A stretch of DNA of 63,594 nucleotides from an uncultured Methanosarcinales archaeon (GCA_964587045.1 CAZPJY010000003.1:2079-65672), one strand, 5' to 3'. Shown: positions 9,561 to 40,696, counted from the stretch's first letter. Translations and numbers: made by a program. The notes: a model not told the origin generated them from the letters alone.

Positions 9561-10262
9561 CTATTCTTTCCGTTTCCTGCCTTTATTATTCTTTCTCTTG
9601 TGGAACTCAACCTGCCCTCCGAAGTACACGCCTTCCTTGAGCTCGACCGGCCTCCACGTGTCAAGCACCAGCTGGGCTCCCAGCCACTGAGCGAGGGTTT
9701 TTGGGTTCCCTATGGTAGCGGAGAGCGCTATTACCTGTACCTTCGGGAGCATTGCCCTGAGCAGAGTGATAAGAACCTCGAGGGTGGGCCCCCTGCCCGG
9801 ATCGTTGAGCATGTGTATCTCGTCGACGACGACCACCTTCACCTCAGGCAGCCAGGGTGTGTGGTGCCTGATCAGGCTGTCCAGCTTCTCCGAAGTGCAT
9901 ATGATGAGGTCGAAGTCACGCAGGTAGGTATCGGCCTTGTCCATGTCTCCGATGGAGAGCGCGACCCTGGCATGTCCCTTGTACCTCCTGACGAACTCCT
10001 TGTACTTCTCTGTTGCGAGAGCCTTCAGTGGCACTATGTAGACCGCCTTGCCCTTCGAGTGGAGTATGGTCTTGAGCATGGCCATCTCGGCAACGAGGGT
10101 CTTTCCGGAGGCCGTGGGTGTGCAGACCAGGAGGCTCTTTCCCCTGAGCAGTCCTGCCTTGACTGCTTTGCTCTGGGCCGGCCTGAGCTCCTTGATGCCT
10201 TCGCCCTCCAGGATTTTGTAGATGTCTGATGGCAGATCCTTCTTGACCTGTTCGAGCCTCAT
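9561..10262 (-). CDS. hel308: Hel308/Ski2-type helicase, N-terminal fragment (RecA1 domain only)
   Basis: LRPAQ, Walker A CTPTASGKT, VVDEIH, LSAT motifs. Ends RPVELKEGVYFGGQVEFH plus a 12-aa basic tail KRKNNKGRKRKE. No RecA2 domain. Confidence 0.85.
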   Translation of the reverse strand: MRLEQVKKDLPSDIYKILEGEGIKELRPAQSKAVKAGLLRGKSLLVCTPTASGKTLVAEMAMLKTILHSKGKAVYIVPLKALATEKYKEFVRRYKGHARVALSIGDMDKADTYLRDFDLIICTSEKLDSLIRHHTPWLPEVKVVVVDEIHMLNDPGRGPTLEVLITLLRAMLPKVQVIALSATIGNPKTLAQWLGAQLVLDTWRPVELKEGVYFGGQVEFHKRKNNKGRKRKE

Positions 10263-10342
10263 GGGCCTTGGGATTGGGAGGGTGACTATTAAGTTTTTGG
10301 GTGCGAAAGTCTTAAATAATCACGGCTGCCGTGCCGGTTGGT

Positions 10343-11371
10343 ATGGAGTCACAGCCGATACTTGCTTCAGGACTGATAAGCAAGATATTGCCCCAGCTCG
10401 CTGAAACATACTACCTGTTAAACGCGCTGATGTACAACGACAGGAGCTCGGAGCTTACAGACTACATTGCGCATCTCGACCCTTTTGCCAAGGATGTTTT
10501 CGCAAACTTCACCATGCACATTTCGGAAAACGCGCCTGCAGAGCTCAACAAGGTGCTGAGCGCCATCGGAGAATACTCAGTCACCATCGCGACGAACGTC
10601 ACCCACCCCAGGAAGGAGAGGCTCAGGAGCATAAGCGATATTATAATCGAGAAGGCAACGCCCTACTCAGGAGGCAAGGGCGGACAGCTGATACTGCCCT
10701 ACAGCACAGACCCTTCTGCTCCGTATGTTGAGAAGCTGACAGGGCTGATTCTGAAGCACAACAAAGGAGACCTGACCGAGGCAGTTGATAAGGCAATGGC
10801 AGAGGTCGAGCTGGATGAGAGCAGGAGGCTGCTGCAATGCAAGGTCAGGAACGCATTCATCACCTCAGAGCGCAGGAGGATCACTGGATTGGCCGACCGG
10901 GTCTCCAAGTCTCTATGGGTCGGCGAGAAATTATCCGAGAAGAGGAGGAGGTTCAAGGCGGCACGTGAGTATGACCTGATGGTCGCGTCACCGATGCTGT
11001 TGGGCAACATCAGCCACGAGCTGATGCTCGCACTGATATCTGTCGCCTCCATAGGAGGCATAACCGGGCTGGACGGGCAGGATCTCACCGTCAACCACCT
11101 GCTGCTCGGGTTCGAAGAGGACATCAGGGCGGGTAAGAGGCTCATCGAACGAATCGCATCGATCGCAGCGGACGAAGGATATTCAAGAAGCCTGGTGGAG
11201 GGCCGCATAAAGGAGCTGCGGCAGGATCTCATGGCGGACAAGGAAGCGCAAAAGGCTGCTCTGCGTGTTCGGCTCTCCTTTCGCGAGAGCTTCCTGCAGG
11301 CCACGGGGTCGGATGTCCGGCTGGATTCCAAGATAGATGAAGAGTACGCCTTGAGAGAAGGCTATATGTAG
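10343..11371 (+). CDS. hypothetical protein
   Basis: ORF 10331-11371. First ATG at 10343, about 30 nt after a CTTAAATAATC box. Helical, no motif recognised. Confidence 0.5.
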   Translation: MESQPILASGLISKILPQLAETYYLLNALMYNDRSSELTDYIAHLDPFAKDVFANFTMHISENAPAELNKVLSAIGEYSVTIATNVTHPRKERLRSISDIIIEKATPYSGGKGGQLILPYSTDPSAPYVEKLTGLILKHNKGDLTEAVDKAMAEVELDESRRLLQCKVRNAFITSERRRITGLADRVSKSLWVGEKLSEKRRRFKAAREYDLMVASPMLLGNISHELMLALISVASIGGITGLDGQDLTVNHLLLGFEEDIRAGKRLIERIASIAADEGYSRSLVEGRIKELRQDLMADKEAQKAALRVRLSFRESFLQATGSDVRLDSKIDEEYALREGYM

Positions 11372-12303
11372 TTCTTGTTCTTGAAGTATATGTAAAGGAA
11401 CAGTATCGATACCACCATGAGGCCTATTGCGAAGGGGTATCCGCCCAGCCAGCTGATCTCTGGCATGAAGCGGAAGTTCATGCCGTATATCCCAGTTATG
11501 AGTGTCGGCACGAGGATGAACGAGCCGTACACCGTCAGCTTCCTCATGATCTCGTTGAGGTTGTTCGATACAGAGGTCAGGTATATGTCCACGGTGCTCG
11601 TTATGATATCCCTGAAGGTCTCCTCCATGTCGATCAGCTGCACAACGTCGTTGTACACTTCGCGGAACCTGTGGGCTTGCCGCTTGTCGAGATGGCTGAG
11701 GTATCCCTTCTCTATTGCCGTTATTACCTCCCTGTTGGCTATGAGCGCCTTGTGGTAGAATATCAGCGTCTTTTTGATGGAGAAGAGCTTGTTCAGCACC
11801 GACTTGTCAGGGTTTTTCAGCACCCTCTCTTCCACCAGTTCAGCATCATCCTCAATCTCTCCTGATACGCGGAAGAAGTCATTGGATATCTCATCCAGTA
11901 TCTTGTATATGAGCATGGTCGGGTTCTCGAGGATCTTTAGCTTGATGGACTCTGCCAGGGCGCGCAGCCTGTCCACGGCAGCTATCTTCTTTGGCTTGAG
12001 GGTGATTGTCGTCGAACCTATGACGAAGAACGAGACCGGCACCAGCCTCTGCCTCTTGTCTGCAAGGTTGGGCGCGGCATAGACGACCTGGGAATACTCC
12101 TCGGAGTCGAAATATTCGGGCCTTGCGAACTTCTCCAGAAGTTCCGATAGGTCCTGGGTTAGTATGCCTGTGATGTGGGATAGCTGTTCGAGCTCGTGCT
12201 TGGTGGGATCGACGCAGTCTATCCAGAGATGTCCTTCTTTCTTGTGGTCCTCAAGGGTGCCTTCACTTATCTTGCCGTTCACTACCCTTGTAATTATTAA
12301 CAT
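11362..12303 (-). CDS. corA: CorA-family magnesium/cobalt transporter
   Basis: C-terminal GIYGMNF (GMN motif) followed by two TM helices. 313 aa. Confidence 0.85.
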   Translation of the reverse strand: MLIITRVVNGKISEGTLEDHKKEGHLWIDCVDPTKHELEQLSHITGILTQDLSELLEKFARPEYFDSEEYSQVVYAAPNLADKRQRLVPVSFFVIGSTTITLKPKKIAAVDRLRALAESIKLKILENPTMLIYKILDEISNDFFRVSGEIEDDAELVEERVLKNPDKSVLNKLFSIKKTLIFYHKALIANREVITAIEKGYLSHLDKRQAHRFREVYNDVVQLIDMEETFRDIITSTVDIYLTSVSNNLNEIMRKLTVYGSFILVPTLITGIYGMNFRFMPEISWLGGYPFAIGLMVVSILFLYIYFKNKNYI

Positions 12304-12481
12304 AGCTGGTGACTGGACATTTCAGTATTTAAACTTTTAGCGTCACTTGGGGATATAAACCCATACAAATCTCCCATTTTTACAGGAAATATCTTCTATA
12401 GGACAATAATATTTATATATTAGTAGATAAATTTCTATACTAGTATAATAAACCACTTTTTGGTCGTCGGACGGTGAGCAT

Positions 12482-13591
12482 GTGAATCAGAGCAATCTCC
12501 TTAATTGGCTACATTCTGAAGGTTTGCTTGCGACAGCCGAATCCAATGCTCAAGCTATGAAAAACGTGTTCACAGAAGTCCTCGGCATAAATGAAGAAAA
12601 ACCTCTCCTAATCAGCGACTTCGGTCTACCCAGCAGGCGCGCGGCACCAGTGCTCACCGGCGCATTCATCATCGCCGCGCGCCGTGCTGGCCTAGAGCTC
12701 AACATGGTCATGCAGAAGCCGAAGTTCAAGGGCGAAAAAGCCGAAGAAGACATAGTCAACATGATTCAGGGCCTCGAAGGCCAGGGCGTCCTCATCAAGG
12801 CCCTCTCAGGAAGGCTCGGCTACAGGGAATCGACCAACCAGAGCATAAGGCACTACCTGAGGAAAGCTGGACACAGGTTCATCTCCACACAAGGGCTCGC
12901 CTACCTGCACAACTCCCAGATAGACTGGCTCTTCTCATCAATAAATGTTGACTACCCCCTCATGCGTAAGCTGGGATCGGTCATCAAGCAGCTGCTTGAC
13001 GACGCGCATGAGGTTCACATCACCTCACCTGGAGGCACAGACCTCTATCTCAGCATCAGCGGCAAGAAGGCGATAGCCAACGTCGCTGATTACCTCACGG
13101 CAGGCAGGGGCGGGAACCTGCCAGCCGGCGAGGTCTACTTACCACCTGTCAAAGGGAAGGCCGAAGGCGTCCTGGTGGTTGACGGCTCGCTCAGGACAAC
13201 CGATAACACTTACATTTTCTCCAGGCCAACAGTCCTTACCATTGAAGCAGGCCAGATAGTGGACATCCAAGGAGAGGGAGCCCGCGCGATGGAGCTCACC
13301 CTCGACACTGCCGAGCTACATTCTCCCAACCCTCAAAACACCAGGTTGGTATCTGAGCTGGGCATAGGCATCAACCCAAACGCCCGCGTTGTCGGCCCGA
13401 CCATAATAAACGAAAAAGCGTTAGGCACCGCGCACATTGCGATAGGCTCAAACGACTGGTTCGGTGGCGATATCAAGGCAAACCTACACCTCGACCAGGT
13501 GTTCTGCAAGCCAAAGATCGAGCTCGATGGAAAATGCATATCACTCGAGGAGGCATCCCTAGCCTCCTCCCAACTAGTAAGCATACCATGA
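12482..13591 (+). CDS. M29-family (aminopeptidase T/S-like) metallo-aminopeptidase
   Basis: GNLPAGEVYLPP, LVVDGS and LGTAHIAIGSN motifs. GTG start, because the overlapping ATG is followed immediately by a stop. Confidence 0.65.
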   Translation: MNQSNLLNWLHSEGLLATAESNAQAMKNVFTEVLGINEEKPLLISDFGLPSRRAAPVLTGAFIIAARRAGLELNMVMQKPKFKGEKAEEDIVNMIQGLEGQGVLIKALSGRLGYRESTNQSIRHYLRKAGHRFISTQGLAYLHNSQIDWLFSSINVDYPLMRKLGSVIKQLLDDAHEVHITSPGGTDLYLSISGKKAIANVADYLTAGRGGNLPAGEVYLPPVKGKAEGVLVVDGSLRTTDNTYIFSRPTVLTIEAGQIVDIQGEGARAMELTLDTAELHSPNPQNTRLVSELGIGINPNARVVGPTIINEKALGTAHIAIGSNDWFGGDIKANLHLDQVFCKPKIELDGKCISLEEASLASSQLVSIP

Positions 13592-14487
13592 GGATTGAAA
13601 AAAAGCAGCTGGAAATAGAAAGCCTGCCCGACGGTTCGCCGGTCATATTATCATATCTACAAATCCAGGGGAAGCCATCAAAAAAGAAAGCTGCCATAAT
13701 AGCCACGCAGCACGGCGACGAGTTCTTCTCAATCGCAATCATCAACTCATTCATAACCAGCCTCACGAGTTTTGATGGCGAGCTTTTGATATTCCCTGTC
13801 GCAAACCCGCTGGCCTTCAACATACGACGAAGGAGGAACATGATTGACAGGCAGGACATGAACCGCATGTGGCCCGGCAAGAAGGATGGGACCCTAACCC
13901 AGCAGCTTTGCTACCACATCTTCAGGACGATAAAGGACTGCGACTGCGTCCTCGACCTGCACAACGGCAACGAGCACACCCTCGTCGCTCCCCAAGCCAG
14001 GATGAGCGAAAAGCAGCAGCAAAAAGAGAGGGACCTCGCAAAAAACCTGGGAGTCAGCTTCGTCGTGCCCAGCGGGCTGAAAGGGCAAAACACCCTCATC
14101 CACACCCTGAACAAGCACGGCATCCCCGGAGTCACGATCGAGATCGGCGAGGGCCAGCGCATTGACACAACCTTCATTAAGAAAGGTGTGCATATCATCA
14201 GGAATTTCCTGGCATACAACAGGATGCTACCCAAGGCAGTTGGCCAAAAAAAAACCCTGTTCTTCAAGCAGGACGGATACGAGTACATGAGAGCTGAAGA
14301 AGGAGGTCTTTTCATACCAAACCTTGAAGCGCTGGGCAAGAAGACACAACTGCTGGGCGAGCTCACCAGCTTCGCCGACTACACGACCAAGCAGATTAAG
14401 CTCGAGTCGCCAAAGTACATACTTTCTCTTTTCGTATCAGGTGTTATATCAGAAGGCCACATCATCGCAAGAATCAGCAAAGACTAA
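13588..14487 (+). CDS. succinylglutamate desuccinylase/aspartoacylase (AstE/AspA, M14-like) family zinc hydrolase
   Basis: ATQHGDE (HxxE zinc site) and LDLHNG motifs. ATGA start/stop overlap with the M29 gene. Confidence 0.65.
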   Translation: MRIEKKQLEIESLPDGSPVILSYLQIQGKPSKKKAAIIATQHGDEFFSIAIINSFITSLTSFDGELLIFPVANPLAFNIRRRRNMIDRQDMNRMWPGKKDGTLTQQLCYHIFRTIKDCDCVLDLHNGNEHTLVAPQARMSEKQQQKERDLAKNLGVSFVVPSGLKGQNTLIHTLNKHGIPGVTIEIGEGQRIDTTFIKKGVHIIRNFLAYNRMLPKAVGQKKTLFFKQDGYEYMRAEEGGLFIPNLEALGKKTQLLGELTSFADYTTKQIKLESPKYILSLFVSGVISEGHIIARISKD

Positions 14488-15314
14488 GCCACCTTCTCGA
14501 GATAGTCCACAATAAGCTTAGGTATGTCGATCCCTGTCGCGGCGACCAGCCCCTGGAACTGCGGCGCCCGGTTCACCTCAATAACATAAGGCTTGCCTTC
14601 AGAGAGGACTATATCCACGCCGGCGATCTCGATTCCCATCACCTTGGCAGCCTTCACAGCCAGGCTCTCGACCTCCTTGGTCGGCCTGAAGGCTTCGATT
14701 CCCCCTCCGAGGGCCACGTTGGAACGCCACTCCCCTTCCTTGGCTTTCCTCATGCCCGAGGCAACGACCTTGCCGCCAATGACAAAGACCCGGATGTCCG
14801 ATCCTCCAGCCTCGATGAATTCCTGGATCAGGCTTTTAGGCCTCAGGGTAGACTTGAAATCTTCTTCACGGCTGACGTCCCTGCCCTTCGAACCGAGGAT
14901 GGGCTTGACAACAGGCTTCTCGAGATCGATGGCCTTCAGCAGCGACTTGCACCTGATGAAGTAGCTCTTTGGGTGCGGCACCTTTGCGCGGGAGAGCATC
15001 GCGAGGGTGAAGACCTTATCATAATCCCGCGAGACGTGGACCGGAGCGTCCACGACCTTGACTCCCAACGTCTCGAGGATGTTGAGGAACCTCCTGCCGT
15101 CGTCCTTGACCACTGACGTGAATCCTCCCCTTACCAGGAGTACGTCGGGCAGCGTGTACTCGGAGTCTTTATAGAAGAGCTTGACCTCCTTTCCCAGCTC
15201 GTAAGAGACGTTCCTGGGGTCGATGAAGGCGCATTCCATCCCCCTCTCTGATATCTCCTCGAGTATTCTCTTGTTCTCCCAGCTCTGGGAAACCGCAGCA
15301 ACATCGATGCGCAT
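14484..15314 (-). CDS. RimK/LysX-type ATP-grasp ligase
   Basis: VVKPILGSKGRDV, IQEFIEAGGSDIRVFVIGGKVV and GVDIV...YVIEVNRAPQF are ATP-grasp signatures. Convergent with the AstE-like gene, with a 4-nt overlap. Confidence 0.7.
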   Translation of the reverse strand: MRIDVAAVSQSWENKRILEEISERGMECAFIDPRNVSYELGKEVKLFYKDSEYTLPDVLLVRGGFTSVVKDDGRRFLNILETLGVKVVDAPVHVSRDYDKVFTLAMLSRAKVPHPKSYFIRCKSLLKAIDLEKPVVKPILGSKGRDVSREEDFKSTLRPKSLIQEFIEAGGSDIRVFVIGGKVVASGMRKAKEGEWRSNVALGGGIEAFRPTKEVESLAVKAAKVMGIEIAGVDIVLSEGKPYVIEVNRAPQFQGLVAATGIDIPKLIVDYLEKVA

Positions 15315-15390
15315 CGTACCACCGGAATCCTGCTCATATTTAATCCTTTTCTAATAAGCTTTTTATAGTCCCGGAGTTTCGCAACCTTGC

Positions 15391-17790
15391 ATGCGATTGC
15401 GCACCCTCCATCTTAAAAATATAAGGAGCTACGACGAGGTAGAGATAGCTTTCCCGAATGGGTCAGTCCTCCTCAGCGGAGACATCGGCGCGGGCAAGTC
15501 GACCATACTACTGGCAGTCGAGTTCGCGCTCTTCGGCCTGATGAAAGGGTCCCTCTCAGGTGCCGCGCTGCTGCGCCATGGCGAAAAGGACGGGAGCGTC
15601 CGCCTTTCCTTCGATCTCGACGGCAAACAGGTCGTTATCAAGAGGAGTCTCAAGAGGGACGCGCGGGGAGTGCGCCAGGACAAGGGCTCAATATCCATCA
15701 GCGGTTCGAGCACCGAATGCACGCCGGTGGAGCTGCGCGCGCGCGTCGTGGAGATGCTCGGCTACCCTCCCCAATCGCTCTCAAAGGACAAGGCCCTGAT
15801 CTACAGGTACACGGTATACACTCCACAAGAGGAGATGAAGCAGATACTGACCGCCAACGCGGACGAGCGCCTCGACATCCTGAGATCTGTGTTCGGAATC
15901 GACAAGTACCGGCGGGCCAGGCAAAACGTCGTTCCCATCAGCAGGTCCATCCGCTCGATGGTCGACCAGATGGAAGGCAGGCTCACAAGCTTCGAGCAGA
16001 CCAAGAAAGAGTTTGCAGAAAACAAAGAGAAGGTACAGGAGATCAAGTCCAGGCTGGACAGGCTCGCGCCGAGGCTTGAGGAGCAGCGCTCCAAGGCCAA
16101 GGCAGCAGAGCGGGAGATGCAGCGCAGCCAGGAAGCCATGACCAGGATTGAAAAGACCATCGCAATAGGCGAGGCGCTGCGGGAACGCATAGTCCACCAC
16201 AAGGAGGAGGAGGTCGAGGTGTCCCGTGAAATCGCCGAGCTCGACGCAGCACACGACACCCTGCTGGTCCCGACCTTCAAGGAATTCGGCATCAGGCCAA
16301 CACACCTCGGGCTCGATGAAGTGAGGAAGCTGCTCAACGAGCGCAGGGCCGAGGCCTCCAATTTGATAAAGGAGAGGTCAGCGCTCCACGAGAGATACAG
16401 GTCGCTTTCTAAGGAGTACGAGACCCTCAGGTCGGTTCCTGACCACAGCGTCCGCATAGAGATCCTCACAGCTAAGGTGAACAAGAGGGCCGAGCTGGCC
16501 GAACGCAGGAAGTACGCACAGGAAAAAATCATCGCGGCCGAGAGGAGAATCTCAGAGGTCAGGACCGTCATCGAGCAGTCAACTCAAATCGCCGAGACCA
16601 TAGGATCCCTCGATGTATGCCCACTGTGCAAGCAGAAGGTGGACGCGGAGCACAAGCATACCATAAGGACTGACGAAAGGGAGAAGGTCCGAACAGCCAA
16701 ATCATCTCTGGAAAGCGCTGAGGCAGATGTGTCGGTTGCAAAAAAGAAGCTTGAATCGGCCGAAGCAGAGCTCAATGAGACTGACCAGTACGCACTTGAG
16801 CTGGCCAGGCTTACCTCGCAGAGGAACGATTCCCTCTCGAGGCTTAAGGAGGTCACCATACTTCTGGCTGAGACCAAGTCCAGGCTGGAGAGCCTCCCAG
16901 AATCTGAAGAGGTGAAGCTTCGGAAACTCGAGGAACTCGCAGAGAGGCTGCGCGAGTTCGAGGAGGCCAAGGATGCTTTCGTGCGAGCCGCGGAAAGGCT
17001 CAGGCAGAACGAGATCTCAGCTGCCCAGAGGAGGGAGCAACTGAAACGCATAGGCTCCCAGCTCAGAGAAGCTGTCGAGCAGGAGAAGGGACTTTTGGCC
17101 ACCCTCACCGACGCCGACACTGTGAAGGGAAGGCTCTCCTCGTCAAAACAGCAGGTTGAGAGGGAGAGGGAAGCCCTGCGCAGGCTCGAGCTGGAGGAGG
17201 CCGAGCTGAAGGCTTCCCTGCGCGCCGCGACTGAGCGGGCGGGCAGCCTCGCCGATGCGTTCAAGGAGCTAAGGGAGATCAAGAGTAAGCAGGCCAGGCT
17301 GAAGCGCCTGCGCGCCTGGCTAAACGACCACTTCTCGAGGCTGATGGAGGTCATCGAGAGGCATGTGATGGCCCAGCTCCACCGCGAGTTCGACGCATTG
17401 TTCAGGAACTGGTTCGACCTCCTACTCGAGGACGAATCCCTCAGCGCGAGGCTGGGGACCGACTTCGCTCCTTTGCTCGAGCAGAACGGATACGACACAG
17501 ACATAACCAACCTGTCGGGAGGTGAGCGCACCTCCCTCGCCCTGGCCTACCGGCTCGCTCTCAACAAGGTCATCAACGACTACATCTCGACTATCCACAC
17601 GCGCGACCTCATAATCCTTGACGAGCCGACCGACGGCTTCTCGACAGAGCAGCTCGACAGGGTAAGGGAAGTGCTGGAGGATCTGAGGATAAGCCAGGTG
17701 ATTCTGGTGTCGCATGAGCCGAAAATGGAGAGCTTCGTAGAAAATATTATAAGGATAAATAAATCTGAACACTTGAGTAGGGTGATGTGA
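15391..17790 (+). CDS. rad50: Rad50 (SMC-like DNA double-strand-break repair ATPase)
   Basis: Walker A GDIGAGKST, long coiled coils, central zinc hook CPLC (SLDVCPLCKQKV), signature LSGGERTSLALAYRLAL, Walker B LIILDEPTDGF. Confidence 0.85.
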   Translation: MRLRTLHLKNIRSYDEVEIAFPNGSVLLSGDIGAGKSTILLAVEFALFGLMKGSLSGAALLRHGEKDGSVRLSFDLDGKQVVIKRSLKRDARGVRQDKGSISISGSSTECTPVELRARVVEMLGYPPQSLSKDKALIYRYTVYTPQEEMKQILTANADERLDILRSVFGIDKYRRARQNVVPISRSIRSMVDQMEGRLTSFEQTKKEFAENKEKVQEIKSRLDRLAPRLEEQRSKAKAAEREMQRSQEAMTRIEKTIAIGEALRERIVHHKEEEVEVSREIAELDAAHDTLLVPTFKEFGIRPTHLGLDEVRKLLNERRAEASNLIKERSALHERYRSLSKEYETLRSVPDHSVRIEILTAKVNKRAELAERRKYAQEKIIAAERRISEVRTVIEQSTQIAETIGSLDVCPLCKQKVDAEHKHTIRTDEREKVRTAKSSLESAEADVSVAKKKLESAEAELNETDQYALELARLTSQRNDSLSRLKEVTILLAETKSRLESLPESEEVKLRKLEELAERLREFEEAKDAFVRAAERLRQNEISAAQRREQLKRIGSQLREAVEQEKGLLATLTDADTVKGRLSSSKQQVEREREALRRLELEEAELKASLRAATERAGSLADAFKELREIKSKQARLKRLRAWLNDHFSRLMEVIERHVMAQLHREFDALFRNWFDLLLEDESLSARLGTDFAPLLEQNGYDTDITNLSGGERTSLALAYRLALNKVINDYISTIHTRDLIILDEPTDGFSTEQLDRVREVLEDLRISQVILVSHEPKMESFVENIIRINKSEHLSRVM

Positions 17791-18665: not shown

Positions 18666-18912
18666 GCTTGTCCGGCTTCTCATCCACTATATCTTTTACA
18701 AGCCTGTACACATACAGCAGGGAACCTGCCCAGAAGATGTAGCGGAAGCCCTGGAAGAGGAAGTGCCAGAAAAGCACGCTGCCCCCACAATCGCTCGCGC
18801 ACGACGCGTACCCTATCAGGTTGTCGACGACTGCCGAGCCTACCAGCCCGAAGAAGAAGAGTGTTACGACCATCATCATGAAATGGTACCTGAGGGAATC
18901 CATCAGCATCAT
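18637..18912 (-). CDS. small membrane protein
   Basis: 91 aa with two or three hydrophobic helices (MMMVVTLFFFGLVGSAVV, FWHFLFQGFRYIFWAGSLLYV). AT-rich promoter region shared with tRNA-Pro. Confidence 0.45.
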   Translation of the reverse strand: MMLMDSLRYHFMMMVVTLFFFGLVGSAVVDNLIGYASCASDCGGSVLFWHFLFQGFRYIFWAGSLLYVYRLVKDIVDEKPDKPIELGGLRY

Positions 18913-18946
18913 TGTGGCTGAGCATGTATAAAATTCTTGCCAAAAA

Positions 18947-30624: not shown

Positions 30625-30652
30625 TTTATACCTGGTTCTCCTGCGCTTATCC

Positions 30653-31567: not shown

Positions 31568-31606
31568 GGAAAAGATTTTAAAACTTCAGGAGAAGTTTTG
31601 GATTTT

Positions 31607-32236: not shown

Positions 32237-32240
32237 ATAC
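32229..32240 (+). promoter_or_regulatory. TATA box upstream of dph2-like gene
   Basis: CATTTAAATACA is centred about 27 nt before ATG 32262, consistent with a leaderless transcript. Confidence 0.4.
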
Positions 32241-32261
32241 ATGTCTCCATTCTCCCGAACC

Positions 32262-32948: not shown

Positions 32949-33007
32949 GCCGACGAACAGGCCCGCCAAGAACTCCTTGAGTCCGTAGTGTATCTGCTGG
33001 GTCTGGT

Positions 33008-33262
33008 TCATTTTGGCAGCTGCGGCTTATTGGGTCCGGATTCTTTCAGCTCAATCCTGCCAAAAGACCACAGCACTGCAGCGGCACCGTAGAATATGGG
33101 CAGCAGGAGGAACTCGTTCACCCGTATCGCAAAGGCGATGTTTTGGTAGAACAGCGGCCTGACGGCGAACCAAATGGTGAAGTACAGCCCGATCCCGGCG
33201 CAGGCGCCTGCGAGGAACAGGAGCACAAGCCCTATCATTTCGTGTCGCATGAGGTTGCTCAT
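33008..33262 (-). CDS. small membrane protein
   Basis: 84 aa, three hydrophobic helices. ATGA overlap with the upstream ORF. Last gene of the RDD-sppA operon. Confidence 0.5.
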   Translation of the reverse strand: MSNLMRHEMIGLVLLFLAGACAGIGLYFTIWFAVRPLFYQNIAFAIRVNEFLLLPIFYGAAAVLWSFGRIELKESGPNKPQLPK

Positions 33263-33600
33263 CTTCTCTTACCCCCCTTCTTAGTCAGTTCCTTTCTTAG
33301 CAGCTTTATCTCATCCAGCTCCTCTGCAGAGATCTGCTTGAGCAGCTGAATCTCCTTGACCTGCTCGCTGATGACGATCCGAAGCTCCTCTTTTACGTCC
33401 TCGTTCGTCGCGGCTATGATCATCAGGAATATCAGGCTCAGCCACAGGAAGATGGCGTGGACCATGTCCCATGTAAGGCTCATCTCATTTGAGTACATGA
33501 TGTTGATAAAGTAGAATCCCAAGAAGCCGACGATGAAGCCTACAGGGAGGAGGACCCACTCGAACAAGTTAGCGTCGCGAATCTTACCAAACATCCCCAA
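33259..33600 (-). CDS. small membrane protein with C-terminal coiled coil
   Basis: 113 aa, two or three TM helices, then EELRIVISEQVKEIQLLKQISAEELDEIKLLRKEL. Confidence 0.5.
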   Translation of the reverse strand: MGMFGKIRDANLFEWVLLPVGFIVGFLGFYFINIMYSNEMSLTWDMVHAIFLWLSLIFLMIIAATNEDVKEELRIVISEQVKEIQLLKQISAEELDEIKLLRKELTKKGGKRR

Positions 33601-33649
33601 ACCACCTCTTTTAACTCAAACAGGACCCGGCAGGTATAAAAGGTTTTCG

Positions 33650-34531
33650 TTAGGTTACTACCCTTACACCTTCCATGACTCCCAGGTCTGGCTTCTTGGC
33701 TGCTAATCCTGTGAGGAGGTCATAGATTGAGCGTTCGACCTCGTAATTTACGATCTCTACTGAGGTGTTCAGCTGACGCTCCAGGTAGGCGACCGCCTCA
33801 GGCGTGTTTCCCAGCTCGTCAACAAGCCCCGCCTCGTAGGCCTGGTAGCCTGTCATGAAGAGTCCGTCAGCGATCGCTTCGACCCTCTCCCTCGACATGT
33901 TCCTGTTCTGAGCCACCTCGTCGACGAAGAAGGAGTGTATCAGGTCGATTTGCTGCTGGAACAGCTCCCGCTCCTCGTCCGTGATGTTTCTGAAAGGGCT
34001 GCCGAAGTCCTTGTAGGCCGCTGACACAAACCTCTGGTACGTCACGTTGTATCGCTCAAGCAGACCTGAGAATTCCAGGTAGGAGCCAATCACGCCGATG
34101 CTTCCGGTGATTGACATCCGGTTTGCGATGATGTGGTCGGTGGCCGAAGCAACCCAGTATCCGCCGCTCGCGCCTACCTCCTGGATGAGCGCTACAGTTG
34201 GGATGTCAAGGCTCTTGATGGCCTGGCCTATCTCGTCGCTAGCCACCGGGCTTCCACCCGGCGAATTGATGCGAAAGAGCACGGCCTTTATCTCAGGGTT
34301 GGCCTTCACCTCATCTATGAGCGAGAGGACTTCGGTGGAAGTCGTCCCGCCACTCCCGTAGCCTGACGAGAGGACCGTGATCGGGCCAGCGATATCGATA
34401 GCAGCCACGTTGCCAGTCCCGATGTCCTCGCCTGTGAAGTACCATGCGGCGACAGCGCTCGCCAGCCATATCAGCACGATTATGATAATCATCTTCTTCC
34501 ACACGTCCCAAGTGGCGTCCTTTTGTATCAT
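33650..34531 (-). CDS. sppA: signal peptide peptidase SppA (S49, 36K type)
   Basis: FRINSPGGSP, ASGGYWVASA and SITGSIGVIG motifs. I prefer the start at MIQKDATW (34531), which overlaps the RDD stop. The 74-codon upstream extension in the ORF track overlaps the RDD gene. Confidence 0.8.
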   Translation of the reverse strand: MIQKDATWDVWKKMIIIIVLIWLASAVAAWYFTGEDIGTGNVAAIDIAGPITVLSSGYGSGGTTSTEVLSLIDEVKANPEIKAVLFRINSPGGSPVASDEIGQAIKSLDIPTVALIQEVGASGGYWVASATDHIIANRMSITGSIGVIGSYLEFSGLLERYNVTYQRFVSAAYKDFGSPFRNITDEERELFQQQIDLIHSFFVDEVAQNRNMSRERVEAIADGLFMTGYQAYEAGLVDELGNTPEAVAYLERQLNTSVEIVNYEVERSIYDLLTGLAAKKPDLGVMEGVRVVT

Positions 34532-35016
34532 ACCCACCCCTTGAAGTAGTCCTGGACCACCCGCGTATTGCTCAGACGGTCCGACAGCCGGCGTTTGGTG
34601 TAGAACATCATGATAGGATCCACGATCCACAAGATCGCGAAGGGCAGGAAGGGCAAAACCGCCATGTTGCGCAGGACTGCCTGCCAGAAGGTAGGCGCCG
34701 GGTCGACGCGGATGTTGAGTAGCATCTTGCCGACAGTGCGTTGGGTCTTCCACTCGAGCAGCGTGAAGTACAGCAGCATCAGTATGCCCATGGCAAACAG
34801 GGCGCTGTAGACAGGGTCGCCGAAGGACTGCGCTTCCGTGTATATGGACGAAAAGCTTGAGCCCGCAGGGAAAATCTTTGAGAAGAACGCCCGGAAGGGC
34901 CCAAGCACGATGATGTTGATTACGAGCAGGTCAATCGCGAAAGCTGCCACACGCCTGATAAGCTGAGCGTCATCTGTGTCGACCTTGCCCCTGATTGACC
35001 TAAGGCTCTTTGCCAT
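34528..35016 (-). CDS. RDD-family-like membrane protein
   Basis: 162 aa. RRVAAFAIDLLVINIIVLGPF plus two more TM helices and a C-terminal RLSDRLSNTRVV, the pattern typical of RDD domain proteins. Confidence 0.5.
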   Translation of the reverse strand: MAKSLRSIRGKVDTDDAQLIRRVAAFAIDLLVINIIVLGPFRAFFSKIFPAGSSFSSIYTEAQSFGDPVYSALFAMGILMLLYFTLLEWKTQRTVGKMLLNIRVDPAPTFWQAVLRNMAVLPFLPFAILWIVDPIMMFYTKRRLSDRLSNTRVVQDYFKGWV

Positions 35017-35090
35017 GCAAATATGGAAGGTGGGGTGCTATATAATATTACCCAAAGTCTTATAAATCCAATGCCATTCTCACAGAGGAT

Positions 35091-35423
35091 ATGCCGCCTT
35101 TCAAGAAGCCAATGGACCCAGAGGAGGAAATCAGGAGAGTCAAGCTTCCGAGAGGGAACCAGACCTTCGCTCTTCTCGAACAGCGACTGGGCGCGAGCAG
35201 GGTGAGGGCGCGCTGCCTCGACGGCAAGACGCGCGTCTGCCGCATCCCCGGCAGGCTGAAGCGCAGGCTCTGGCTGAGGGAAGGCGACATAATCCTAGTC
35301 GAACCCTGGGAAGAGCTGGGGGACGAGAAGGGCGATGTCATCTTCAAGTACCGCAAGAATCAGGTGGAATGGCTCAAGAAGCAGGGGCACCTCGAGCAGC
35401 TCGACGACTTCGACGAATTCTAA
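35091..35423 (+). CDS. eif1a: translation initiation factor 1A (aIF1A)
   Basis: S1/OB core RARCLDGKTRVCRIPGRLKRRLWLREGDIILVEPW. 110 aa. Confidence 0.9.
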   Translation: MPPFKKPMDPEEEIRRVKLPRGNQTFALLEQRLGASRVRARCLDGKTRVCRIPGRLKRRLWLREGDIILVEPWEELGDEKGDVIFKYRKNQVEWLKKQGHLEQLDDFDEF

Positions 35424-35472
35424 CCACTCCGGAATGAAAAACTTTAAATATTATGCTTTTAGAGGACAGACC

Positions 35473-36012
35473 ATGAGGGGGTATTTCGTATCTTTCATCC
35501 TGATCATACTAAACGTAGCCCTGCTCATCGGCATGCTGGGCTTCCTGCCTGATGTCATTTTCTTCAAGGAGGCAATCCTGATCATTCTCATATTCATAGC
35601 TTCATTCATCTCCCTAACGCGGCACAACCCTGTTTACGACTCACTGCTGTGGGCGCTCACCCTCTTCAACTCGCTTTATGTCTTCGTCAGCGCGGAGAGG
35701 TGGCTCAGCGTCCTTCTGGTGCTTGTGAACATGGCAGGCTTCGTTTTCGCACTCTCGCGCTTCCCCAAGAGGAGGAGGCGTAGGCAGCTCATCAGCAAGC
35801 GCGAGCTCATCGAGAGGGAGCTCGAGGACCTAAGGGCAACCTACGATCTTCCCAAGAAGGGGCCCAAGCCTTTCGTCGGCAATGTAACATCCAAGAAGTT
35901 CCACGACAGGAGAAGCCCCTACGCAAAGAGGATCAAGCAAAACAACCGCGTCCTTTTCGACTCCCGTGAGGAGGCCATAGCCGAAGGCTACGAGGAAGTG
36001 CCCTGGAAGTGA
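35473..36012 (+). CDS. membrane protein with basic C-terminal domain
   Basis: MRGYFVSFILIILNVALLIGMLGF plus three further TM helices. C-terminal KKFHDRRSPYAKRIKQNNRVLFDSREEAIAEGYE. ATG lies about 25 nt after an AACTTTAAATATTA box. Confidence 0.55.
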   Translation: MRGYFVSFILIILNVALLIGMLGFLPDVIFFKEAILIILIFIASFISLTRHNPVYDSLLWALTLFNSLYVFVSAERWLSVLLVLVNMAGFVFALSRFPKRRRRRQLISKRELIERELEDLRATYDLPKKGPKPFVGNVTSKKFHDRRSPYAKRIKQNNRVLFDSREEAIAEGYEEVPWK

Positions 36013-36047
36013 AGTTATTTATACTAGCTCCGCATTGCCGGTACCCT

Positions 36048-36182
36048 ATGGATCTCAAAAGCGCTTTCTCGACAGCAAAGGCGATCGGCTCGCAGAACGA
36101 AGCCCGCAACGTCATGGTCTTCCGCATCATAATATTTGTTATAATAGCAGCGATCCTCATTTATTTCTCCATCCGGGGCTAG
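36048..36182 (+). CDS. possible 44-aa single-pass membrane peptide
   Basis: Hand-translated: MDLKSAFSTAKAIGSQNEARNVMVFRIIIFVIIAAILIYFSIRG. GTTATTTATAC box about 25 nt upstream. Below the ORF-track cut-off. Confidence 0.35.
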   Translation: MDLKSAFSTAKAIGSQNEARNVMVFRIIIFVIIAAILIYFSIRG

Positions 36183-37405
36183 GAGTTGTACCTCTCCACT
36201 ATCTCCCTAACCCTCTCGGCGAAATGCGGGACGTCATCAGCTGGCGGCAGCGGCTCAATCTGCTCGGGGTTCTCCCTTATGGGCAAGAAGGCCTCCTCTG
36301 CGGCCCTGCCGAACACTATCATAGTTTCCTTCTCCTTCTTTTCGTCATAGAAGAAATCTGAGATCCACGCCTGCCCCTTATAGACCTGGAGATGCTTCTC
36401 AGCCTCCTCATAGAAAGCCTTTATCAGGCGGGTCTCGGTGTCAACGTCAAGCAACTGGGTGCCTCCCAGCTTGTATATCTTGCGGTAGAAGGCCTTGTCG
36501 ATATCGATGGCCATCTTGAAAAGACCTCTTGTGTGGTCGTCCCCGGAAATTGGGGAGTGCCTGTGGTCGTAGACATACTCCTTGATGTCCGGGTCGTACC
36601 TGCCAGTGTTTATCTGGCACCGCTTGAAGGGCCGCTTGAAGAGGTAAGACACTGTGCCTATCTCAAGGCCCCAGTCGGGATGTATGGGTATGAAGGGTGC
36701 GAGTTTTGCCGACATGCCGAACTCGCCTGACAGGAGGTAGTTATAGCCTCCAATGTATTCCAGGAACTCGTGGATTAGGTTGTTGCTGCCGAACACCTTG
36801 TCCAGCGCGCTTATGAGCGGACGGACCGAAAGCCTCAGGACGCGCCCGTACATCTCGTACCTGCCCTCTTCGTTTCGGGCCACCCTGTGGTAGTACGCCT
36901 TGACGAAATCGTAGCTCAAGCCGGTCAGAGGGAGTATCAGGCTCTGGAGGAAGCGCTCGTCGTAGGTCTTGATGTCCGCGTCATGCAGGATGTACTGGAG
37001 GCTCGGATCCTTCTGCAGTTGGGTGTAGTAGTAGAGAAGGGATGTCCACACGTTCAGTCCCTTGCCTGCATTGATGTTGATGCCTTCCTTCTTCATATCT
37101 TCCTGAAGCTCGAGCATCTCGGGAGCAGAGTTCCATATTATCGTGTACGCATCCCCACAGCTGTCTTTTACTTGCCGGAAGTCGGACTCCTCCGATGCCT
37201 GATCGAGGCCTCCGACGAGGTAGTCCAGGTATGGGGCTTTCTTGTCGATTGGGCATATGCCATCCACGAACGTCGGGCTGACCGCGTCTTCAAGGGTGAA
37301 TGGCACGAAGCCGAGCACTTTCTTGTTCTTGGACCTCAGCCTTTCTGTAGCATCGCCCCTGATCTTGGTAAGGTCGACAATTATGGTGTTCGTGTTAAAA
37401 GGCAT
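36179..37405 (-). CDS. GT-A glycosyltransferase, mannosyl-/glucosyl-3-phosphoglycerate synthase-like
   Basis: About 408 aa. NAGKGLNVW and ILHDADI (DxD) motifs recall the GT55/GT81 compatible-solute synthases. The family assignment is from memory only. Confidence 0.4.
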   Translation of the reverse strand: MPFNTNTIIVDLTKIRGDATERLRSKNKKVLGFVPFTLEDAVSPTFVDGICPIDKKAPYLDYLVGGLDQASEESDFRQVKDSCGDAYTIIWNSAPEMLELQEDMKKEGININAGKGLNVWTSLLYYYTQLQKDPSLQYILHDADIKTYDERFLQSLILPLTGLSYDFVKAYYHRVARNEEGRYEMYGRVLRLSVRPLISALDKVFGSNNLIHEFLEYIGGYNYLLSGEFGMSAKLAPFIPIHPDWGLEIGTVSYLFKRPFKRCQINTGRYDPDIKEYVYDHRHSPISGDDHTRGLFKMAIDIDKAFYRKIYKLGGTQLLDVDTETRLIKAFYEEAEKHLQVYKGQAWISDFFYDEKKEKETMIVFGRAAEEAFLPIRENPEQIEPLPPADDVPHFAERVREIVERYNS

Positions 37406-37485
37406 CGGTCTCACATCTAGCTTGGAAATACTACGAAATACACCCCCTCACTCACTGGGTTGTAGGCATATTTAAAAATATTTCG

Positions 37486-37779
37486 CTAAATGTCCAAAAA
37501 GACATTTCTGATTCCCTTATCGACGACGAATCTGGTCGAGCTCTCACCGACAGAAAGGCTGTACTCCCCTGGCAGGAGATGTGCGTAGACCACTCCCTGC
37601 TCATCAGTGAGGGTCTCGCAGAAGTGGCCCTGCCCATCCCACCGAACCAGCTCGTCAGGGAGGGGGGTGCCGTCGTGGGTCAGGACTATGCTGACGTTCA
37701 CCAGCTCGCCTGATGTGAACGGTGCGCAATGCGGGCCGCACCCGGCGAGCAGCAGCAACAGCGGTATGAGCCATCTCAT
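37486..37779 (-). CDS. small secreted lipoprotein
   Basis: MRWLIPLLLLLAGCGPH is a signal peptide with the lipobox LLAGC. 97 aa. Confidence 0.6.
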   Translation of the reverse strand: MRWLIPLLLLLAGCGPHCAPFTSGELVNVSIVLTHDGTPLPDELVRWDGQGHFCETLTDEQGVVYAHLLPGEYSLSVGESSTRFVVDKGIRNVFLDI

Positions 37780-37852
37780 AATGCAAAGAGCAGGGCATCA
37801 TGTATATTAACGTTTCCGCAAGGCTTAAAAAAAAGCTACTAGTTCTCGGCAC

Positions 37853-38692
37853 ATGCCGCCGCAGGGGATGCACGCGCTGATGTCGCACATGACATACAGC
37901 AAGAGGGACACGAAGAATCTGGTATACTCAATCATGCCTGACCTGGTCTGGCTCTACACCGACTTTGACGAGCACGTCTGCCATTCCAGGCGCACAATCC
38001 GGCAGGTCCAGAGGTTCGTCGGAGAGAACCCGTCTGACGGGTCCAGGTACATCCCGCTGTACATCAAGCACCACATTGTGGCAGACAGGCTGTGCGACTC
38101 TCGACACGGCGTACTCACGGCGTACGCGCAGGAAATGCTCCAGCTCGCACGCAATAGTGGCCTGTTCAAGAGGACGGGCCTCTTCTTCAACGAAAAGAAG
38201 CAGTTCTCGTTCGCCCAGCTGCTGGACGACCTGGCCATGGACCAAGCCATATTCGAGCGGTACGGCACCTCACACCTCGACGCACTCAACTATTCGGCGA
38301 GGCACATTGACCGCAGCTACGCGTACAGGCTCCTCACAAACTCCTTCATCCCGCGCTCGCACAAGAAGAGGAGGATATTAAGTGAGAAGACATCGTCCCT
38401 CATTGAGGAGATATCGAAGACAGACTTCCACTTCCTGACCGACACTGAGAGCATTCTCGCGACGGTCAAGAAGAAGGTGAACCACAATAAGAAAAGGGCG
38501 ATGAACTCCTTTGCAAGCAGGTTCTTCATACCATTATTAGAGGAGAAGAAACCCATTCTCGAGGGGATAATCAAGGAACAAAAGGAGATGTACCTCGGCA
38601 GAATCGACGACCTGCTCAGGCTCATCTACGACAGGACCAACAGCTTCATGTCCGAGGTGCCTGACCACACCATCGGCGAGCTCTTTGGCTGA
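37853..38692 (+). CDS. hypothetical protein
   Basis: 279-aa ORF, helical, no motif recognised. Start codon uncertain. Confidence 0.45.
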   Translation: MPPQGMHALMSHMTYSKRDTKNLVYSIMPDLVWLYTDFDEHVCHSRRTIRQVQRFVGENPSDGSRYIPLYIKHHIVADRLCDSRHGVLTAYAQEMLQLARNSGLFKRTGLFFNEKKQFSFAQLLDDLAMDQAIFERYGTSHLDALNYSARHIDRSYAYRLLTNSFIPRSHKKRRILSEKTSSLIEEISKTDFHFLTDTESILATVKKKVNHNKKRAMNSFASRFFIPLLEEKKPILEGIIKEQKEMYLGRIDDLLRLIYDRTNSFMSEVPDHTIGELFG

Positions 38693-38697
38693 GGGCA

Positions 38698-39057
38698 TCA
38701 ATCCATATTGAGAGTATCAATCAACATCGTACTGAGCTTCTCTACCGCTGCCTTTGCCCTCCTCCTGTAGTACCACCCGCCGATGCTGAAGAGCTGTCCG
38801 AACTTAATGCTGCGCTTCACTGCCAGACTGGCCTTGCGGGCCTCCCAATAATCCTTGAAGTCGTATTTGAGTATGTCGTCGATCGCGGCCTTCCTCGCAT
38901 CCCAGTCCGGCACATTCTGCTCCATCTCAACCACATCAGAAGCGAGGCTCACAGGCATGGAATACTCACCGAAGGTGTCGTCAATAGTCCAGTAGACCTT
39001 GACCGCCTTGGTGGAATCAAGCCTCTCAAGCAATCTGTCCAATTCGATAGCAACCAC
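38698..39057 (-). CDS. hypothetical small protein (start uncertain)
   Basis: C-terminal part of the 330-aa ORF 38698-39690, the rest of which is antisense to hel308-C. In-frame GTG at 39057 lies about 27 nt from the TTATATAAAA box. Alternative ATG (MPVSLASD...) further in. Confidence 0.4.
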   Translation of the reverse strand: MVAIELDRLLERLDSTKAVKVYWTIDDTFGEYSMPVSLASDVVEMEQNVPDWDARKAAIDDILKYDFKDYWEARKASLAVKRSIKFGQLFSIGGWYYRRRAKAAVEKLSTMLIDTLNMD

Positions 39058-39079
39058 CCCGTGCTGGTATAGGAACTCC

Positions 39080-39128
39080 TTATATAAAAAACATTCCACC
39101 GGACAGGCCTTCACAAAATTTATTAAGA
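39080..39128. promoter_or_regulatory. back-to-back TATA boxes (minus-strand small ORF and hel308 C-fragment)
   Basis: TTATATAAAA (39080-39089) is about 27 nt from GTG 39057 on the minus strand. AAAATTTATTAAG (39116-39128) is about 27 nt from ATG 39149 on the plus strand. Confidence 0.4.
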
Positions 39129-39148
39129 GCTGGAGATTCGATGCCCTT

Positions 39149-40696
39149 ATGAGGATAAAGCAGCCGACAGGGATTCCGGCCATCGATTTGGCCCTGGACA
39201 CCCTGGATAAGAAAAAGCAGGCCTTCATCTTCGTGAACTCCAAGAGGTCAGCCGAAAGAACCGCAGAGGACGTGGCCAAGAGCGCGGGGATGGAGGGCGA
39301 TGAGCTCAAGGCGCTCGCAGACCAGGTCAAAGGCGTGCTCCCCAAGCCCACCAAGCAGTGCGCCAGGCTCGCATTCTGCCTTGAGAGGGGCGTCGCGTTC
39401 CACCACGCGGGCCTGGTCGGAAAGCAGAGGGAGCTGATAGAAGATGGTTTCCGCAGAGGAGTCATCAAGATCATCGCGTGCACCCCCACCCTCGCAGCCG
39501 GGGTCGACCTGCCCGCGTTCCGCACCATCCTCAGGGATGTCAAGAGGTACGGCAGCCCGTGGGGACTGTCCTGGATCCCTGTGCTCGAGTACATGCAGCA
39601 GGCCGGCAGGGCCGGAAGGCCGTCCTTCGACGACTTCGGCGAGGCATTGGTTGTCGCGGCAAACGATGCCGACCGAAAGGAGATAATCAAGCGTTACCTG
39701 TCGGGCGAGCCTGAAGAGATATTCTCTAAGCTCGCCGTGGAGCCTGTCCTGAGGACGTACGTGCTCTCACTGATAGTCGCAGGCTACATCACCGACGAGA
39801 AGGGCATGTTCGGATTCTTCGAGAGGACCTTTTGGGCGCACCAGTACAAGGACATGGAGAAGCTCAAGAGCAAGCTGCAGAAGGTGGTGCAGCAGCTTAA
39901 GGAATGGGAGTTCCTCACACCTTCAGACGATTTCGTGAGCGCCGACGACCTGGGCAAGGAGGATGCCGGGCTCAAGGCGACGCTCATCGGAAGGAGGGTG
40001 GCTGAGCTCTACTTAGACCCCCTGACCGCCTACAGCCTGATGCAGGGCCTGCGTCTCGCCTCTTCCGCAGAGGTCAAGGCCGTCACCTTCCTCAACCTCG
40101 TGGCCTCGGCTTTGGAGATGCGGCCCTACCCAAGGATCAAGGCCGCGGAGTGGGAGGACATGCAGGAGAAGCTTGCGGCCTACTCCCCCTACCTCGTTGT
40201 AAAAGAGCCCTCCCTCTACGCAGCCGAGTACGAGGACTTCCTCTCCTCCTTCAAGCTGACCCTGATGCTGATGGACTGGGTGGAGGAAAAGGACGAGGAG
40301 TACCTGCTCGAGGGGTACAGCATCAGGCCGGGCGAGCTGCGAGTCAAGCTCGACCTGGCGGACTGGCTCCTCTACGCGTGCGAGGAGCTCTCGAATATCA
40401 TGCAGTTCCGCGCTGTCAGGTCGCACGTGTCCAAGACCAGGTTCAGGGCAAGGTACGGCGTCAAGGAGGAGCTGTTTGCTCTGCTGAAGCTCAAGAACGT
40501 CGGGCGCGTCAGGGCCAGACGCCTCTACAACTCGCGCATCCGCGACCTCAGCGACGTGAAGCGGGCTGATGCCCACGTCCTCTCACAAATCGTCGGGCCT
40601 GCGGTCGCAAAGGACATCAAGAAGCAGGTCGGCCAAGAGGTCGAAGTGGTGCCAGAACGCAAGAGGAAAGGGCAGGTTTCGCTCAAGGATTTCTAG
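39149..40696 (+). CDS. hel308: Hel308/Ski2-type helicase, C-terminal fragment (RecA2, winged-helix, ratchet and HhH-like domains)
   Basis: AFIFVNSKR, AFHHAGL, TPTLAAGVDLPA and QQAGRAGRP motifs. C-terminal LKNVGRVRARRLYNSRIRDLSDV is HhH-like. Begins MRIKQPTG. No RecA1 motifs. Confidence 0.85.
   Translation: MRIKQPTGIPAIDLALDTLDKKKQAFIFVNSKRSAERTAEDVAKSAGMEGDELKALADQVKGVLPKPTKQCARLAFCLERGVAFHHAGLVGKQRELIEDGFRRGVIKIIACTPTLAAGVDLPAFRTILRDVKRYGSPWGLSWIPVLEYMQQAGRAGRPSFDDFGEALVVAANDADRKEIIKRYLSGEPEEIFSKLAVEPVLRTYVLSLIVAGYITDEKGMFGFFERTFWAHQYKDMEKLKSKLQKVVQQLKEWEFLTPSDDFVSADDLGKEDAGLKATLIGRRVAELYLDPLTAYSLMQGLRLASSAEVKAVTFLNLVASALEMRPYPRIKAAEWEDMQEKLAAYSPYLVVKEPSLYAAEYEDFLSSFKLTLMLMDWVEEKDEEYLLEGYSIRPGELRVKLDLADWLLYACEELSNIMQFRAVRSHVSKTRFRARYGVKEELFALLKLKNVGRVRARRLYNSRIRDLSDVKRADAHVLSQIVGPAVAKDIKKQVGQEVEVVPERKRKGQVSLKDF

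Follow-up and report, generated by a model that had tools for sequence, protein, structure and literature searches.

Studies of Hel308/HELQ, a conserved genome-stability helicase, have dealt with a one-chain protein, and the locus considered here raises the question of how an archaeal genome comes to encode it in two pieces, and whether those pieces still make one enzyme. The window, by which we mean the whole stretch of DNA analysed, comprises 63,594 nucleotides of a metagenome assembly attributed to an uncultured Methanosarcinales archaeon (GCA_964587045.1 CAZPJY010000003.1:2079-65672). An earlier interpretation made from the nucleotides alone, here called the sequence-only reading, had described two hel308 open reading frames (ORFs) 29 kb apart on opposite strands, had taken their geometry as the sign of a single inversion, and had suggested a working split gene rather than a dead one. 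Both ORFs are present as described: the hel308 N-half gene lies at 9561-10262 (-) and encodes 233 aa, the C-half gene lies at 39149-40696 (+) and encodes 515 aa, and the two are divergent with 29 kb between them. In place of the single polypeptide of ~700 aa expected for Hel308, these chains together divide one Hel308/Hjm exactly. Sequence comparison and structure modelling make it probable that hel308 is here a stably split gene, with two unlinked genes whose products would most likely assemble non-covalently into a two-subunit Hel308.

The exactness of the division is apparent from profile, structural and full-length alignments. In Pfam searches the N-half matched DEAD (E = 7.7e-34) and the C-half matched Helicase_C, HTH_61 (4e-4), Helicase_dom4_arc (4e-25) and HHH_5 (3.3e-5); both halves are identified as Hel308, with no shared domain content. 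The N-half aligned to residues 11-215 of P. furiosus Hjm (2zj2; E = 1.8e-63) and the C-half, from its residue 13 onward, to residues 228-712 (E = 7.4e-86). On the Hel308-type NCBIfam profile NF002654 the N-half occupies positions 1-223 and the C-half 224-711, with zero overlap and zero loss, and the full-length relative P0245 (726 aa) maps through residues 1-226 to window 10262-9591 (-) and through residues 229-719 to 39149-40645 (+). The earlier impression that almost nothing is missing at the junction is thus borne out, as is its list of the motifs in each half. Within the window, no hel308-like sequence was found besides both halves. Compared with archaeal Hel308/Hjm proteins (Ski2-like superfamily 2 DNA helicases; 2ZJ2, 2P6R, 2VA8), the pair has the same five domains and all helicase motifs in the same order, and the best NCBIfam and PDB matches of both halves are Hel308; what differs is that two unlinked genes encode them, the chain being cut ~18 residues into RecA2. 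We place the C-half start at ATG 39149 in preference to TTG 38999. The latter is unlikely because homologues begin 11-15 residues ahead of the 'N(L/I)ALDT' helix, because the Joint Genome Institute (JGI) gene call is likewise 515 aa, and because the extension would run into the divergent 120-aa gene at 38698-39060 (-).

Division of the protein in this way also affects how it is annotated. Neither half passes the equivalog cut-off of the relevant families: on NF002654 the N- and C-halves reach 300.9 and 430.9 bits where 887 is required, and on NF040935 (helicase_Hel308) 232.5 and 296.5 bits where 1200 is. The generic public names of the homologues ('DEAD/DEAH box helicase', 'hypothetical protein') fit this behaviour. 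Surveys that score the presence or absence of COG1204/Hel308 therefore probably mis-score these genomes, and reconstructions of repair pathways may wrongly call Hel308 missing or truncated.

Could the gene have been broken by the assembly itself, through a chimeric contig or frameshift errors in a contiguous gene? The window does come from a metagenome assembly, and a 14-nt mismatch with a JGI contig occurs elsewhere in it, but contigs assembled separately cross both junctions. From JGI metagenome 3300031552, contig Ga0315542_1025509 corresponds to window 12001-9362 at 99.5% identity and contig Ga0315542_1038494 to window 38881-40901 at 100% identity, reaching 199 nt beyond the N-half stop and 268 nt 5' of the C-half start, respectively. 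An assembly chimera, which the sequence-only reading had wished to see excluded, is unlikely on this evidence, and as the same split recurs in hundreds of independent NCBI, JGI, ENA and Logan assemblies, we regard the chance of an artefact as negligible.

The split is shared widely among relatives. We compared the best 120 database homologues of each half, 86 N-half loci from metagenomes and 5 C-half loci. The best 120 N-half homologues measure 218-274 aa (median 221) at about 60-71% identity, and the best 120 C-half homologues 511-579 aa (median 519) at 49-58% identity, none of the latter with a DEAD domain. Where a source is given for these homologues, the labels are Woesearchaeota, Nanoarchaeota or Nanoarchaeia metagenome-assembled genomes (MAGs), with one exception, 'Thermoproteota'. 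The position of the break is as constant as its presence: N-half homologues terminate 1-3 residues past '...WRPV.L..G.Y..G.(I/V)EF', and the stop codon falls 0-13 codons past the same conserved Phe in 85 of the 86 N-half loci, the remaining one being cut by a contig end. Those of the best 120 that exceed 232 aa carry an N-terminal extension or a short tail, and none reads through the junction. Catalytic motifs are retained on both sides of it, with I in 119, II in 120 and III in 120 of the best 120 N-half homologues (111-120 across motifs Q-III), and IVa in 119, V in 108 and VI in 119 of the best 120 C-half homologues. The suggestion of a working rather than a dead gene is supported by these comparisons, the halves being separate in all close relatives sampled, broken at the same residue and with their catalytic motifs kept. 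The window's own N-half tail (HKRKNNKGRKRKE; the last 13 codons, 9561-9599) is Lys/Arg-rich and the longest among 85 related loci, most of which have 1-2 residues past the conserved Phe.

Unsplit relatives delimit the group. Clustering of the library at 50% identity reduces the split N-halves to essentially one representative, P0241 (225 aa). Beyond it come shorter and partial matches among a majority of full-length proteins (~700-1,260 aa). P0242 and P0244 (57% identity), the closest unsplit relatives, continue through the junction ('...IDFFETKENLAINRAISDPTLRLALDT...'). Unsplit Hel308 is also found in other Woesearchaeota-labelled MAGs (L005, L006; 45-46% identity), in Aenigmatarchaeota and in Nanohaloarchaea, and a scan of genome contigs with a fused N+C alignment, ranked by E-value, returned full-length Hel308 of other archaea only, from which the outgroups L005-L008 were taken. 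In a rough neighbour-joining (NJ) tree the core split group adjoins the unsplit set L005/L006/P0242/P0244/P0245. These comparisons indicate that the split is ancient and conserved across a Woesearchaeota (DPANN) clade, and not recent. A single fission in the Woesearchaeota radiation (GTDB Nanoarchaeota), kept since by purifying selection, is its likely though unproven origin. P0242 itself crosses the junction but is just 378 aa long on a 65-kb contig, and may be broken at a different site. Three short N-half-like proteins at 50-54% identity, P0254 (231 aa), P0266 (223 aa) and P0247/P0394 (284-285 aa), terminate at or close to the common break point; each could stem from an independent fission or be a member that evolves fast.

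The age of the split bears directly on the proposed inversion, in which a recent flip of roughly 9.6-39.1 kb, in this genome or its close ancestors, would have had one breakpoint inside an intact hel308. The halves do lie on opposite strands, flipping 9561-39148 does join them in frame, and zero residues are lost at the junction. This fit is less telling than it appears. When all four layouts are worked through, any pair of fragments on opposite strands is rejoined by exactly one inversion, and because of this the fit informs solely on the strands being opposite. The 29-kb geometry consequently gives no specific support to an inversion, and the split is older than the present gene order: every relative sampled, to as low as 60% identity in the N-half and 49% in the C-half, has the same break. 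Since the split predates the divergence of sequences that are 60-70% identical, the present spacing in the window cannot record the event. Nor was an intact gene met among close relatives, all of them being split. In the MAG GCA_003650545.1 both halves lie on contig QMQO01000001.1, the N-half at 65392-66054 (+) and the C-half at 79530-81269 (-), which places them 13.5 kb apart and convergent, a spacing and orientation other than those of the window. The two junctions carry no inverted repeats; the short matches of 71-85% identity that were detected are located elsewhere. With close relatives all split, motifs intact and junctions free of repeats, the halves do not resemble a pair of pseudogenes left by a recent inversion, an event that we consider very improbable.

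Gene order in relatives gives a more informative view of how the halves may have parted. By tblastn, the 86 N-half loci, which with flanks of up to 10 kb either way amount to 754 kb, yielded no C-half, and the 5 C-half loci no N-half. The N-half has a recurrent neighbour: ftsY lies tail-to-tail with it in at least 41 of the 86 loci, with prefoldin beyond ftsY in 29, and a homologue of the window's small membrane protein sits between N-half and ftsY in 10. A junction kept in so many loci must be old, which is a further argument against a recent inversion. It is also what would be expected if an ancestral inversion or translocation, with its breakpoint in hel308, had divided the gene at the clade's base and later rearrangements had altered the spacing. 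The halves are never adjacent in the loci sampled, the 3' end of the N-half abuts that of ftsY as an old breakpoint would, neither ftsY nor prs (ribose-phosphate pyrophosphokinase) was found beside unsplit hel308 in the DPANN outgroups searched for ancestral synteny, and the two genomes in which the pair has been placed (the window and GCA_003650545.1) each carry it on opposite strands. However, an in-place fission (stop and restart) followed by separation fits equally well, and a junction with no residue lost or duplicated is at least as easily produced in that way. The neighbours of the C-half vary, and as those on its 5' side are not conserved, a second breakpoint is untraceable. We therefore see an ancestral rearrangement as a plausible origin that we stop short of favouring; it concerns only how the split arose and is compatible with a two-subunit enzyme.

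The position of prs also varies among these loci. It lies directly upstream of prefoldin-ftsY, on the N-half side, in 16 related loci (L085, L096-L098, L100, L102 and others); in the window it is instead at the 3' end of the C-half, and the order is eIF6-prefoldin-ftsY-small protein followed by the N-half on the other strand, with eIF6 ahead of prefoldin as in L118. Comparison of these orders indicates that a rearrangement shifted prs relative to the prefoldin-ftsY cluster in one lineage. A window-specific inversion of ~33 kb (7.3-40.7 kb), which would restore the prs-prefoldin-ftsY order, was entertained and dropped as unproven, L118 sharing the window's eIF6-prefoldin-ftsY order; a position of prs that varies between subclades may be the simple alternative. 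The eIF6-prefoldin-ftsY arrangement is a common archaeal cluster. Other N-half neighbourhoods include that of L085, in which an Lhr-type helicase (955 aa; 7103-9970) lies directly upstream of the N-half on the same strand, and that of a widespread groundwater species with P0056 (L178-L187), in which enolase, iPGM, the N-half, archease and RtcB form a tight same-strand run.

How would two such chains work together? An AlphaFold2 (AF2) model of the N- and C-halves joined end to end, built from an alignment in which the separate halves were combined with full-length relatives, has a mean predicted local distance difference test score (pLDDT) of 93.6 and a predicted template-modelling (TM) score of 0.90, with low confidence at residues 222-230 of the tail only. 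Foldseek comparison with Hjm/Hel308 crystal structures gave TM scores of 0.90-0.94 (normalised by target length) and root-mean-square deviations of 2.5-3.6 Å. The C-terminal strands of the N-half, 207-214 and 217-221, are modelled at pLDDT 94-97; most of the tail is of low confidence, and its final residues form a short strand against the beginning of the C-half. In PfuHjm, domain 1 comprises residues 1-197 and domain 2 residues 198-399 (Oyama et al., PMC2636818). Alignment takes the N-half as far as Pfu residue 215, which puts the break in the chain ~18 residues inside RecA2.

We tentatively propose the following arrangement. Subunit A, the 233-aa N-half, would supply RecA1 with the ATP-binding motifs I and II, together with a C-terminal β-hairpin of RecA2, while subunit B, the 515-aa C-half, would supply the rest of RecA2 with motif VI, for which access to the ATP site is essential. 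The hairpin could dock into the RecA2 sheet of subunit B and so tether the subunits, and contacts of domain 1 with domains 3 and 4, as in solved Hel308 structures, may add to the tether. Because the break lies inside RecA2, the ATPase site would have to assemble from two polypeptides, forming between motifs I and II of one chain and motif VI of the other. The winged-helix, ratchet and helix-hairpin-helix (HhH) domains of subunit B would close the ring around single-stranded DNA, and the enzyme would hydrolyse ATP and translocate 3'-5' in the manner of single-chain Hel308. Expression, assembly and activity of such an enzyme are our inference.

Several points weigh against this interpretation or limit its reach. 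Monophyly of the split clade received a modest NJ bootstrap of 39/100, and the three short, divergent N-half-like proteins described above fall outside the core split clade in that tree. Both halves have been confirmed in the same genome for two genomes only; of the protein pairs whose contigs were compared by length, P0077/P0215 (34,230 and 34,231 bp) proved to lie on distinct contigs, P0056/P0224 had no record in common, and P0153/L099 alone placed N- and C-half together. When the N-half is modelled by itself the hairpin is still predicted, at a pLDDT of ~72 as against 94-97 in the fused model, a weak comparison given the shallower alignment. Finally, our assignment of the N-half hairpin to the RecA2 domain of the C-half follows the published domain boundaries of PfuHjm, not contacts in the model. 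A bolder version of the proposal, in which the Hel308 motor here strictly requires two subunits, two unlinked genes contribute to its ATPase site in trans, and the split has long been fixed at one RecA2 residue, is one that we rate as rather unlikely.

A non-covalent assembly must also be set against the possibility that the halves are joined after transcription or translation, by RNA trans-splicing or a split intein, to give a single-chain Hel308. Both mechanisms are known in Nanoarchaeota: in N. equitans, tRNA halves are trans-spliced and the DNA polymerase is joined by a split intein. The split DNA polymerase B of that organism is like Hel308 here in that one enzyme derives from two distant genes, but it is ligated by an intein, whereas no intein matches were found in the Hel308 halves with Pfam. 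There is also little room for one, as N-halves extend just 0-13 residues past the conserved strand and C-half leaders are just 11-15 residues long, and these tails and leaders are variable and lack conserved splice-junction residues. Complementarity between the 3' flank of the N-half and the 5' flank of the C-half does not exceed 8 nt, compared with a mean of 7.1 and a maximum of 10 in shuffled controls, and all relatives have retained separate stop and start codons. Joining by either route is hardly credible on these grounds.

Alternatively, the halves may no longer cooperate, with one or both having taken a separate role or one being a decaying relic. The genes are unlinked, their neighbours differ and co-regulation is not obvious, all of which would suit such a divergence. 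Yet the motifs of both halves are nearly invariant, and the N-half retains ~18 residues of RecA2 that would be useless without a partner. The N and C parts are also conserved in the same proportion as in comparison with unsplit proteins (53% and 43% identity, respectively, between the window and P0245), which likewise argues for continued cooperation. We judge separate functions or decay to be improbable, and continue to prefer a non-covalent assembly of the two subunits.

Although a split Hel308 is new to us, split genes are not new to these archaea. The sequence-only reading had likened the arrangement to the split genes of N. equitans, an analogy that is apt in kind if not in the gene concerned: the published list for N. 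equitans and Nst1 contains reverse gyrase, an Lhr-type 'large helicase-related protein', RNA polymerase B, GatE and others, and Hel308 is not on it (PMC3655853). As in those cases, the Hel308 ORFs are distant and abut exactly, correspond to a single chain elsewhere, and are broken at the same site across related genomes. In contrast, the Hel308 split occurs in Woesearchaeota-type genomes of many metagenomes, beyond the hyperthermophilic Nanoarchaeales, and is fixed at one residue, while the published Lhr split site differs between two nanoarchaea (PMC3655853). A closer parallel in distribution is dph1/2, described as split in Woesearchaeota, Pacearchaeota and other DPANN (Narrowe et al. 2018, as reported in PMC6349945); compared by description, it too concerns an information-processing gene, one of a different protein family, that is split lineage-wide in these organisms. 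Split Hel308 thus joins a known class of DPANN split genes; as a system it is not of a new kind.

The literature searched, in which subscription journals are thinly covered, contained no account of a split Hel308. It goes unmentioned in a 2024 survey of archaeal Ski2-like helicases, a 2026 review of Hel308/HELQ, a survey of archaeal gene fusion and fission, and a 2026 preprint on 208 complete Nanobdellota genomes (bioRxiv 10.64898/2026.05.13.725050). If the two-subunit motor is real, it would to our knowledge be the first case of a Hel308/HELQ protein split in nature; helicase activity could then be regulated by subunit supply or assembly, and a free RecA1 subunit might have another partner. 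With the cut just after the first β-hairpin of RecA2, the pair would offer a natural two-piece system for studying communication between RecA1 and RecA2. The DPANN split list would gain an information-processing enzyme, and an indication that splits can be ancient and stable in a broad, mostly non-thermophilic clade, beyond N. equitans.

Coordinates of the two genes, their upstream regions and their immediate neighbours are collected in Table 1. Each half was said to have its own start codon and TATA-like box, and such boxes were found upstream of both ATGs. Their positions, 26-29 nt before each ATG, suggest separate and possibly leaderless transcripts, the promoter role being a prediction from sequence.

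Table 1 Features of the split hel308 locus, in window coordinates
Feature	Coordinates	Strand	Description
hel308 N-half gene	9561..10262	(-)	RecA1 with motifs Q, I (GKT), Ia, II (DEIH) and III (SAT); NF002654 profile, Pfam and 2zj2 alignment
N-half C-terminal parts			First two β-strands of RecA2 (WRPVELKEGVYFGGQVEF) and 13-residue basic tail (HKRKNNKGRKRKE)
hel308 C-half gene	39149..40696	(+)	Rest of RecA2 with motifs IVa FHHAGL, V TPTLAAGVDLPA and VI QQAGRAGR; winged helix, ratchet domain 4, HhH domain 5
Intergenic, 5' of N-half	10263..10330	(-)	Shared with divergent gene 10331-11371 (+); TATA-like 'AAACTTAATA' at 10296-10287, centre ~29 nt before ATG
Intergenic, 5' of C-half	39061..39148	(+)	Between 38698-39060 (-) and C-half; TATA-like 'AAATTTATTAAG' at 39117-39128, centre ~26 nt before ATG
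Second element 5' of C-half	39080-39091		'TTATATAAAAAA'
Prefoldin 7297-7707, ftsY 7673-9004, small membrane protein 9077-9394	7297..9394	(+)	Convergent with N-half; Pfam Prefoldin
prs (ribose-phosphate pyrophosphokinase)	40693..41787	(-)	Convergent with C-half, 4-nt overlap

Other genes of genome maintenance are encoded nearby: the window also carries a Rad50/SbcC-like SMC ATPase and a bacterial-type UvrA (15391-17790 and 46459-49269), and L001 has UvrABC near its N-half. The 14-nt mismatch mentioned above is at window position 11571, within a CorA gene at 11362-12303 (-), where 14 nt (GTATCGAACAACCT) are missing from the otherwise identical JGI contig Ga0315542_1025509. As 14 is not a multiple of three, CorA is frameshifted in one of the two assemblies, and the difference reflects either variation within the population or a mistake in assembly.

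The base composition of the window, at 52-58% GC over most of its length, seems high for the Woesearchaeota-type organisms that its proteins match; the unsplit outgroup MAGs L005 and L006 have ~32-33% GC, going by their isolate names. Positions 51500-54262 form a low-GC island (36% in the 51001-54000 block) that contains small membrane ORFs, a 131-aa ORF and an AAA-like 228-aa ORF. Beside it is a perfect tandem duplication with 300-nt copies at 53273-53572 and 53750-54049, spaced by 477 nt, which gives two identical 134-aa ORFs (53344-53748 and 53821-54225), and a 30-nt repeat occurs at 53245-53274 and 54233-54262. Island and duplication may represent an inserted mobile element or an assembly repeat. 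Just downstream of the island lies a 513-aa ORF (54460-56001) that is UvrC-like by eye.

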